From NCBI GenBank assembly GCA_963845755.1, contig CAWJTV010000046.1:1-42173 (forward strand): a stretch of DNA of 42,173 bases. The letters are read 5' to 3'. Of this stretch, positions 37,345 through 37,721 are shown in pieces. The DNA comes from an uncultured Planctomycetota bacterium. Lineage in GTDB: Bacteria > Planctomycetota > Planctomycetia > Isosphaerales > Isosphaeraceae. Below the pieces are notes generated by a model. That model had not been told where the DNA came from. It did not search any database and was given only the letters and a program-made list of their open reading frames with translations. The position numbers and the translations under genes are program-made. Numbering within the stretch: position 1 is the stretch's first letter; the number at the start of each line of letters is the position of its first letter.

Positions 37345-37721
37345 GTCAACGCGGATCTCGCGACTTGAGGAACTGGGTCTTCCAGCTCGCTTCTCGTCGG
37401 GTTGTGTCAGAGCGTCCGGGACGCCGCCTGAACGGGGCCAAAGGCCCCGATAGGGCTTCGTCCCGGGCGCTCTGGCTGTCGAGGGATGACGGGGGTTGAA
37501 GCCCGCAAGGGCCTTCAACCGGGCGCCCTCGAGAACTGGCACCTTGACGCCGCACCGCGCGGCGGTCTCCGCCTTTTCCACGGGAGACCAAGTCCCCCCC
37601 TGCCCCACACAACGAAGGGGCGGGGCCGCCTCGCATTGGATCCCCTTCAACCGATGCCGTCCCGAGAATCCGCACCCCCGCCCCCTCCTATAGCGACAAG
37701 ATCTCTCAAGTCGCAACCGCG
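37345..37721 (+). ncRNA. Candidate large structured RNA or eno leader, family unknown
   Basis: At least six nested stems, a GCAA tetraloop, several G-U pairs valid only on the plus strand, 5'/3' closing pairing, and no convincing ORF. Confidence 0.5.

Follow-up and report, generated by a model that had tools for sequence, protein, structure and literature searches.

The window analysed here is the complete 42,173-base contig (C46) of a 49-contig, 14.27-Mb genome assembly from the family Isosphaeraceae. Near its right end, an open reading frame (ORF) of 257 amino acids (aa) that resembles alpha/beta-hydrolases (36491-37264, plus strand) and the enolase gene eno (37922-39220, plus strand) are separated by a gap of 657 nucleotides (nt), and inside this gap lies a 377-nt stretch (37345-37721) that a preliminary description had singled out as either an undescribed non-coding RNA or a long cis-regulatory leader of eno. 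The enolase is matched by the Pfam models Enolase_N (E 6e-59) and Enolase_C (E 7e-124); the hydrolase-like ORF has a weak match to Pfam Hydrolase_4 (30.5 bits), was matched by no NCBIfam family and, like eno, lies outside the RNA described below. Comparison with relatives moves the boundaries of the noted stretch at both ends: the conserved unit begins earlier, with a promoter-like motif termed P1 at 37304, and ends earlier, at about 37650. On the plus strand this unit (37304-37650) consists of P1, a variable 5' domain that contains a long hairpin (hairpin B), a conserved box and a long helix (H1). Judged from the sequence comparisons presented here, it points to a real, undescribed RNA family that is restricted to the Isosphaeraceae, and the first of the two readings originally offered is thereby supported, while the leader reading is disfavoured.

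The best-supported pairing across the family is H1 (37557-37634), which the preliminary description had missed. Its two arms (37557-37578 and 37614-37634) flank a C-rich apical region (37579-37613), and the helix can be divided into a base (GCG/CGC), a lower helix (GGCGG/CCGCC) and upper arms (37566-37578 and 37614-37625). Unless another number is stated, counts of anatomical features given in this report rest on 100 loci with a full-length match to R1, a covariance model of the core with 122 positions built from 14 sequences (a rebuild from 103 rows is designated R3); a MAFFT alignment of the 100 full regions, with 735 columns, was too gappy and was set aside. Base and lower helix are nearly invariant, and the next four pairs vary with compensation, one of them occurring as UA 46 times, UG 37 times, CG 16 times and AU three times. 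Altogether, 98.4% of 1231 cells in H1 are paired and six of its 12 pairs have changed on both sides. None of 500 shuffles reached this helix in any of five measures, and slid controls were 40-63% paired. Mutual information singled out the upper pairs 58-98 and 59-97. The upper arms also recognize each other specifically, since in 85 of 99 sequences an arm paired better with its own partner than with foreign arms (-20.7 versus -16.6 kcal/mol on average; Wilcoxon p 2e-12 on 84 distinct arms), the most striking cases being L115, where GAUUUUUGCGCG faces CGCGCGAAAAUC, and L113.

Hairpin B (37407-37475) is the second covarying element. Its stem (37408-37423 / 37459-37474) had been recognized before, is present and covaries among relatives: RNAalifold on 14 sequences returned 17 pairs, many of which have changed on both sides. 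A covariance model of this hairpin (R2) found it on the sense strand in 67 of the 100 loci, and 1107 of the 1203 cells with letters on both sides were paired. Several positions exhibit three or four Watson-Crick types, for example a pair that is AU in 37, CG in 20 and GC in three cases. In some genomes the hairpin is missing altogether (in L080 and L121 the core begins 18-44 nt after P1) and it is therefore dispensable. The neighbouring hairpin C (37479-37532), which carries a GCAA loop on the stem 37479-37485 / 37526-37532, is likewise present as described; by eye, it is confined to a subclade made up of the window and its nearer genera, with an unrelated short sequence in its place elsewhere.

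Between the hairpins and H1 lies the most conserved block of the alignments, a box of about 30 nt (CCCUCGAGAACUGGCACCUUGACGCCGCACC, 37526-37556) with the core AGAACUGGCACC at 37532-37543. Forty-five of the 93 sequences matched by a loose version of the box pattern contain the exact core. The box is predicted to be single-stranded, and we read it as such; mutual information revealed no covarying partner for it among the columns of the core alignment. A TGGCAC within the box could suggest a sigma-54 promoter, a reading that was rejected because variants (UGACAC, GAGCAC) lack the GG and the distance to the following block is variable (by eye). At the top of H1, the apical region has a median length of 34 nt and contains 41% C and 20% G, compared with 33% each in the loci; a run of at least four C is found there in 53 of 99 sequences. 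H1 is followed by a pyrimidine-rich 3' tail (AUUGGAUCCCCUUCAA, 37635-37650) whose form YUUGAYUUYCC is semi-conserved (by eye).

The two conserved helices also reveal the strand. The preliminary description had argued that non-Watson-Crick pairs seen as G-U on the plus strand would turn into A-C when the minus strand is read, and this argument holds for H1 and hairpin B: H1 contains 109 G-U versus 10 A-C cells in 100 sequences, and hairpin B 92 versus 46 in 67 sequences, the ratio being reversed (26 versus 54) in the antisense matches of R2. This excess of G-U over A-C indicates an RNA encoded on the plus strand. Folding energy confirmed the unusual stability of the noted 377-nt stretch, which reaches -195.7 kcal/mol compared to -156.4 +/- 5.3 kcal/mol for 100 dinucleotide shuffles (z -7.43), none of which folds as well. 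The minus strand of the same stretch folds about equally well (z -7.16), and since both strands fold alike, the energy shows unusual self-complementarity and cannot select a strand.

Other parts of the fold first proposed fared less well in the comparison with relatives. All of its pairings do exist in the sequence, including helix A (37395-37410 / 37536-37549), with 14 base pairs of which three are G-U, and the 10-base-pair closing helix (37360-37369 / 37705-37714). By eye, helix A has no counterpart outside the genus, and the closing helix is already broken in a genome of the same genus (G001) that is 81% identical. Both were rejected as conserved features, and an overall architecture in which they enclose everything else is not supported by the relatives. 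The two 3' hairpins, GGUCUCC/GGAGACC (37564-37589) and CCCUGCCCC/GGGGCGGGG (37598-37625), are present as well, but they use or overlap the arms of H1. When the lower helix was imposed as a constraint on folding, 86 of 99 sequences adopted a single extended helix and the other 13 a two-branched form. With the hairpin segment folded alone, the mean probability was 0.96 for the lower helix and 0.69 for the upper arms. In the window, extended H1 without apical structure has -35.0 kcal/mol, the lower part of H1 together with both hairpins in a three-way junction has -39.3 kcal/mol, and the unconstrained minimum free energy structure, which contains the two 3' hairpins, has -43.0 kcal/mol; the pair probabilities are 0.54 versus 0.45. 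Across the family, a nearby complement of the H1 5' arm is enriched only to a modest degree (mean z -0.86, with 30% of the 99 sequences below -1.64), and it is lacking in the close relative L023. According to these models the lower part of H1 appears solid, and the upper part may form a rod or, in some lineages, a junction.

The 5' end of the conserved unit is marked by P1 (37304-37344), a promoter-like motif of two boxes, GTCAAGCC-N14-GCCGATATC, with the conserved sequence CCTTATGGCCC behind it; P1 presumably comprises the promoter and the 5' end of the RNA. The two boxes and their spacer occupy 37304-37333 in the window. The consensus (G/A)TCAAGCC, a spacer of 13-15 nt and GCCGATA(A/T)C was found upstream of the core in 96 of the 100 loci, with a total length of 30 nt in 86, 31 nt in eight and 29 nt in two of them. 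It is directly followed by a conserved CYUAUGGCCC, and it precedes the core by anything between 18 and 388 nt. In the window the variable 5' region behind P1 (37345-37406) contains the 5' arms of the closing helix and of helix A, and its length and sequence differ between genera. P1 looks like a promoter because two conserved boxes stand at a fixed spacing, and as far as sequence can tell it would be the promoter of the RNA. Its -10-like GATAWC resembles the -10 box of canonical promoter-like sites in these genomes (GGATAAAT) and, by eye, that of sites upstream of the genes for transfer-messenger RNA (tmRNA), signal recognition particle (SRP) RNA, RNase P RNA and a 6S-like RNA. A simple sigma-70 scan of 37100-38000 returned no site.

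Only one other P1-like site was detected in the 14.3-Mb genome. It is intergenic (C34:65997, plus strand; GTCAAGAT-N14-GGCCGATAAC) and is not followed by any similarity to the RNA. A second bipartite motif, TGG(T/C)GA-N17-CACAAT(A/G), occurs 75-169 nt before the core in 16 of the 100 loci, where it is situated between P1 and hairpin B (for example in L046, L125 and L126), and is absent from the window; its sequence resembles that of a promoter whose -10 box is extended. An element GCCACAATGG, similar to the -10 part of this second motif, was observed upstream of eno in a genome that lacks the RNA (G002).

The distribution of the element was first assessed with blastn of the gap against 24 other genomes of the family and 16 genomes of the other families of the class. 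Matches were obtained in 16 of the 24 Isosphaeraceae genomes, all of different genera, and in none of the 16 others, the best-kept part being 37523-37645. R1 extended this to full-length matches in 100 of 121 Isosphaeraceae genomes, representing 46 of 53 genera, with exactly one copy per genome; the genome of the window alone has two. Two further family genomes that were negative with R1 contain divergent copies that were found by their context, one recognized from the P1 motif and H1 (G054) and the other (G079, 32.6 bits) preceded by the hydrolase and by a P1-like motif. A match in G008 was discarded, as it lies in what reads as coding sequence. The order holds only the Isosphaeraceae, and in a sample of the whole class R1 matched 26 of 35 genomes of the family and three of 115 genomes of other families, the latter at 26.5-28.9 bits. 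These three weak matches (G173, G175 and G191) have no hydrolase, eno or P1 context, one of them being located inside a coding frame, and were rejected.

A 21-base pattern of the core was additionally searched for exact matches in one genome per species of 185,579 species and recovered 62 stretches, 31 labelled as planctomycetes and 31 from other bacteria, mostly Burkholderiaceae. The planctomycete matches belong to metagenome-assembled genomes (MAGs) of Isosphaeraceae, to Singulisphaera acidiphila DSM 18658, to other Singulisphaera and to Tautonia; in S. acidiphila DSM 18658 the copy is located close to position 9,557,760 of NC_019892.1. Of these 62 stretches, 34 were scored with R1: two from named Singulisphaera reached 106.8 and 85.9 bits, and all 31 non-planctomycete stretches, as well as one planctomycete MAG, stayed at or below 24 bits. 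In the 31 unrelated genomes that contain the pattern (L135-L193; Burkholderiaceae, Sorangium and others), its spacing is constant within a group. As homologues these were rejected in favour of chance matches or conserved coding sequence; the Bradyrhizobium match, for instance, is part of a nuoF-like frame. With R1 matches in most genomes of the family and weak matches devoid of context outside it, the element is specific to the Isosphaeraceae.

No known RNA family accounts for it. None of the 4227 models of Rfam 15 reached its gathering score at any place in the window, and a permissive scan of 37200-37960 against the same release yielded five matches at chance level (13-17 bits compared to thresholds of 38-90; E 1.6-8.7). 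The preliminary description had found no hallmarks of RNase P RNA, tmRNA or SRP RNA here; these RNAs of the genome are located on other contigs, all above cut-off (C41 with 214 bits, C31 with 137 bits and C33 with 67 bits, respectively), and ARAGORN found nothing in 36000-39000. The 6S RNA model RF00013 does not match the element, and its only candidate for a closing stem (37360-37369 / 37705-37714) is the helix that is lost within the genus, so that this assignment was rejected. The best match to RF00013 in the genome is located on another contig (C20:49329-49499, plus strand); it is full-length, remains with 35.6 bits under the cut-off of 46.4, has a TTGATC-N17-TAGATT just upstream and is probably the divergent 6S RNA of the Isosphaeraceae.

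The element is not a repeat either. It had been suggested that many dispersed copies would identify a miniature inverted-repeat transposable element (MITE); blastn, blastn-short and nhmmer detected none, and in the absence of dispersed copies the element is not a MITE. Partial copies were not found in the genome by blastn-short and nhmmer, and collections of plasmids and phages gave no match. The sole other copy resides on the duplicated end of contig C19: the final 13.6 kilobases (kb) of the window (28528-42173) are 97.9% identical, in reverse orientation, to the end of that contig, and this duplication is the reason for the second copy of the RNA in this genome. The 303 differences between the two contig ends are concentrated at both ends of the stretch, and the duplicate reflects either overlapping contigs of strains that were assembled together or a genuine segmental duplication.

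Nor is the element coding. Frames of at least 100 aa span the core in 92 of the 100 relatives, as is common in such GC-rich DNA. Core lengths of 84-141 nt show no 3-periodicity, all residues modulo 3 being represented, and column entropy is flat by codon position (0.77/0.84/0.84). ORFs overlapping the element have no Pfam match, and by tblastn their frame changes, with 42% identity in the same genus where eno is 94% identical. Two long minus-strand ORFs (36925-37803, 292 aa; 37706-39658, 650 aa) run antisense to the hydrolase ORF, the RNA and eno. The former has no Pfam match (the latter was outside that scan), and both look like artefacts of GC-rich sequence that could be mis-annotated as genes. 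On the other side of eno, an ORF at 39362-39943 (plus strand) resembles metalloregulators of the ArsR/SmtB type and scored 42.8 bits with NCBIfam, under the cut-off of 55.

The reading we favour, to which we assign a probability of roughly 55%, is that 37304-37650 encodes a plus-strand, lineage-specific structured small RNA, an autonomous gene between the hydrolase and eno that acts in trans. The two usual neighbours suggest other origins, of which a cis-acting 5' leader of eno is the first to be weighed. In such a riboswitch or attenuator the P1 transcript would run into eno, and the exchange of extended H1 for the two 3' hairpins would set read-through or translation. We consider this unlikely. 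It does fit the position of eno, which lies downstream on the same strand in 83 of the 100 loci, as well as the nearly iso-energetic forms of H1 in the window, the enrichment of the proximal complement to its 5' arm in a subset of sequences and the want of a clear terminator between element and eno. Against it, the remaining 17 loci have other downstream ORFs, several of them convergent, with R1 scores as high as elsewhere (for example 82-93 bits), and in G079 the RNA is kept with eno on a separate contig. Where eno does follow, the gap to its start is at least 93 nt and highly variable, the alternative hairpins are not universal given the predominance of extended H1, and the box lacks the covariation with other core columns that an aptamer would need. 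In addition, eno has a canonical promoter-like site of its own outside the RNA (TTGACC-N16-GGATAAAT, 37796-37825, plus strand), 96 nt before its ATG; a site of this TTGACC type is present between RNA and eno in 17 of the 83 loci and was found zero times in 346 kb of control sequence. In a dozen relatives the eno promoter-like site follows the RNA core with an unchanging distance of 154-157 nt. The loci without eno, together with this separate promoter-like site, argue for an independent small RNA gene rather than an eno leader.

A connection to the upstream neighbour, by which the element would be a structured 3' untranslated region of the hydrolase messenger RNA (mRNA) or a small RNA processed from its 3' end, with P1 as an RNA or processing motif, seems rather improbable to us. 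A hydrolase homologue precedes the element on the same strand in 91 of the 100 loci, its stop codon stands only about 15 nt before the GTCAAGCC box of P1 in most relatives, P1 has no canonical -35 box, and the AUGGCCC just behind the -10-like box is conserved too, all of which would suit this explanation. On the other hand, an unrelated gene replaces the hydrolase in one genus (L046, L070 and L072) with P1 and the RNA kept, neither hydrolase nor eno adjoins the element in L122, two conserved boxes separated by an unconserved spacer of fixed length are typical of a promoter, and 40 nt lie between the end of the hydrolase ORF and P1 in the window. Because either neighbour can be replaced with P1 and the RNA retained, these two behave as an autonomous module. 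The idea that the stretch acts only as DNA or arose by chance, as a GC-rich palindromic spacer, a set of regulator binding sites or a mobile-element relic, strikes us as very improbable. In its favour, folding energy does not distinguish the two strands, the core contains a palindrome (CCGCGCGG), and a -35 CTTGAC gives the P1 box GTCAAG when reverse-complemented; against it, the G-U to A-C ratio in H1 is strongly asymmetric, compensatory changes preserve pairing as the sequence changes, and the element is present once per genome with no plasmid or phage match and no dispersed copies.

Several observations weigh against the independent small RNA gene that we prefer. The -35 position of P1 reads TCAAGC and not TTGACn as in the canonical promoters of the genome, so P1 could instead serve a regulator as binding site or belong to a longer transcript. 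Within 25 nt after H1 a run of at least four T occurs in only 10 of the 100 loci; an intrinsic terminator at this position is thus unsupported, no other clear terminator is apparent, and read-through from the element into eno is possible. The presence of eno downstream in 83% of the loci and the close hydrolase stop codon leave room for co-transcription with either neighbour. Furthermore, the significance suggested by the shuffles and the Wilcoxon test given above is overstated, as relatives do not represent independent samples. Among public sequencing runs no RNA run was listed with the stretch, and 20 DNA runs contained at most 0.12 of the sampled words.

For the autonomous small RNA gene the following mode of action may be envisaged, in which the role of P1 as promoter, the ends of the RNA and its action in trans are all inferred. 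The RNA would be transcribed from P1 as a separate small RNA with an estimated length of about 310 nt in the window and, measured from P1 to the end of the core, 121-503 nt (median about 320) in relatives. H1 and hairpin B would give it stability and shape. Its working surface in trans would be the unpaired box AGAACUGGCACC, the C-rich and G-poor apical region of H1, or both, and box or C-rich region would pair with mRNAs or bind a protein. C-rich loops typically pair with G-rich ribosome-binding sites.

Comparison with known systems revealed partial likenesses in each case. The element resembles the orphan structured RNA motifs of the Weinberg/Breaker type, many of which are in Rfam, in being intergenic and lineage-restricted and in combining conserved blocks with covarying helices, and differs from them in that no Rfam 15 family matches it. 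The small RNAs with C-rich loops, 6C RNA of Actinobacteria and RsaE/RoxS of Firmicutes, share with it a stable GC-rich hairpin, a C-rich and G-poor unpaired region, the single-copy and lineage-specific occurrence and a plausible pairing with G-rich ribosome-binding sites. Compared to these RNAs, the element is much longer, has a box (AGAACUGGCACC) without counterpart and carries C runs in about half of its members, and it does not match their Rfam models. With 6S RNA (RF00013) it has in common that it is single-copy, conserved, highly structured, a few hundred nt long and without a fixed neighbour gene, but a conserved closing stem and a central bubble are missing. Riboswitches and attenuators are similarly found upstream of a metabolic gene on the same strand and display a conserved unpaired segment beside a helix, and in the window the 5' arm of H1 can form an alternative hairpin as theirs do; in contrast to them, the gene that follows varies, the alternative pairing is missing in part of the family, there is no U-tract terminator and eno has its own promoter-like site. 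The listings and abstracts of the literature on planctomycete and Isosphaeraceae RNAs contained no description of the element, and no regulatory RNA described for planctomycetes turned up in them.

A bolder extension, which we regard as doubtful, would make the element a housekeeping-like RNA class of soil and peat Isosphaeraceae, either an abundant RNA that forms a ribonucleoprotein (RNP) or a global regulator. A dedicated protein or enzyme would then bind the AGAACUGGCACC box and the rigid helix, which is some 20 base pairs long, and the position next to eno would stem from a connection with central carbon metabolism, such as riboregulation of glycolysis.

With a single copy in each of about 100 genomes, compensatory changes and a G-U signature that is specific to one strand, the element has the comparative support usually required of a new RNA family. 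Even if it were only a structured spacer transcript, its recognition would still improve the annotation of genomes, in which long spurious ORFs cover the stretch on both strands. Since the carriers include the cultured Singulisphaera acidiphila DSM 18658 as well as Tautonia, the RNA is directly testable, and if it is truly a trans-acting regulator or a component of an RNP, it would give access to post-transcriptional control in a phylum whose cell biology is unusual.

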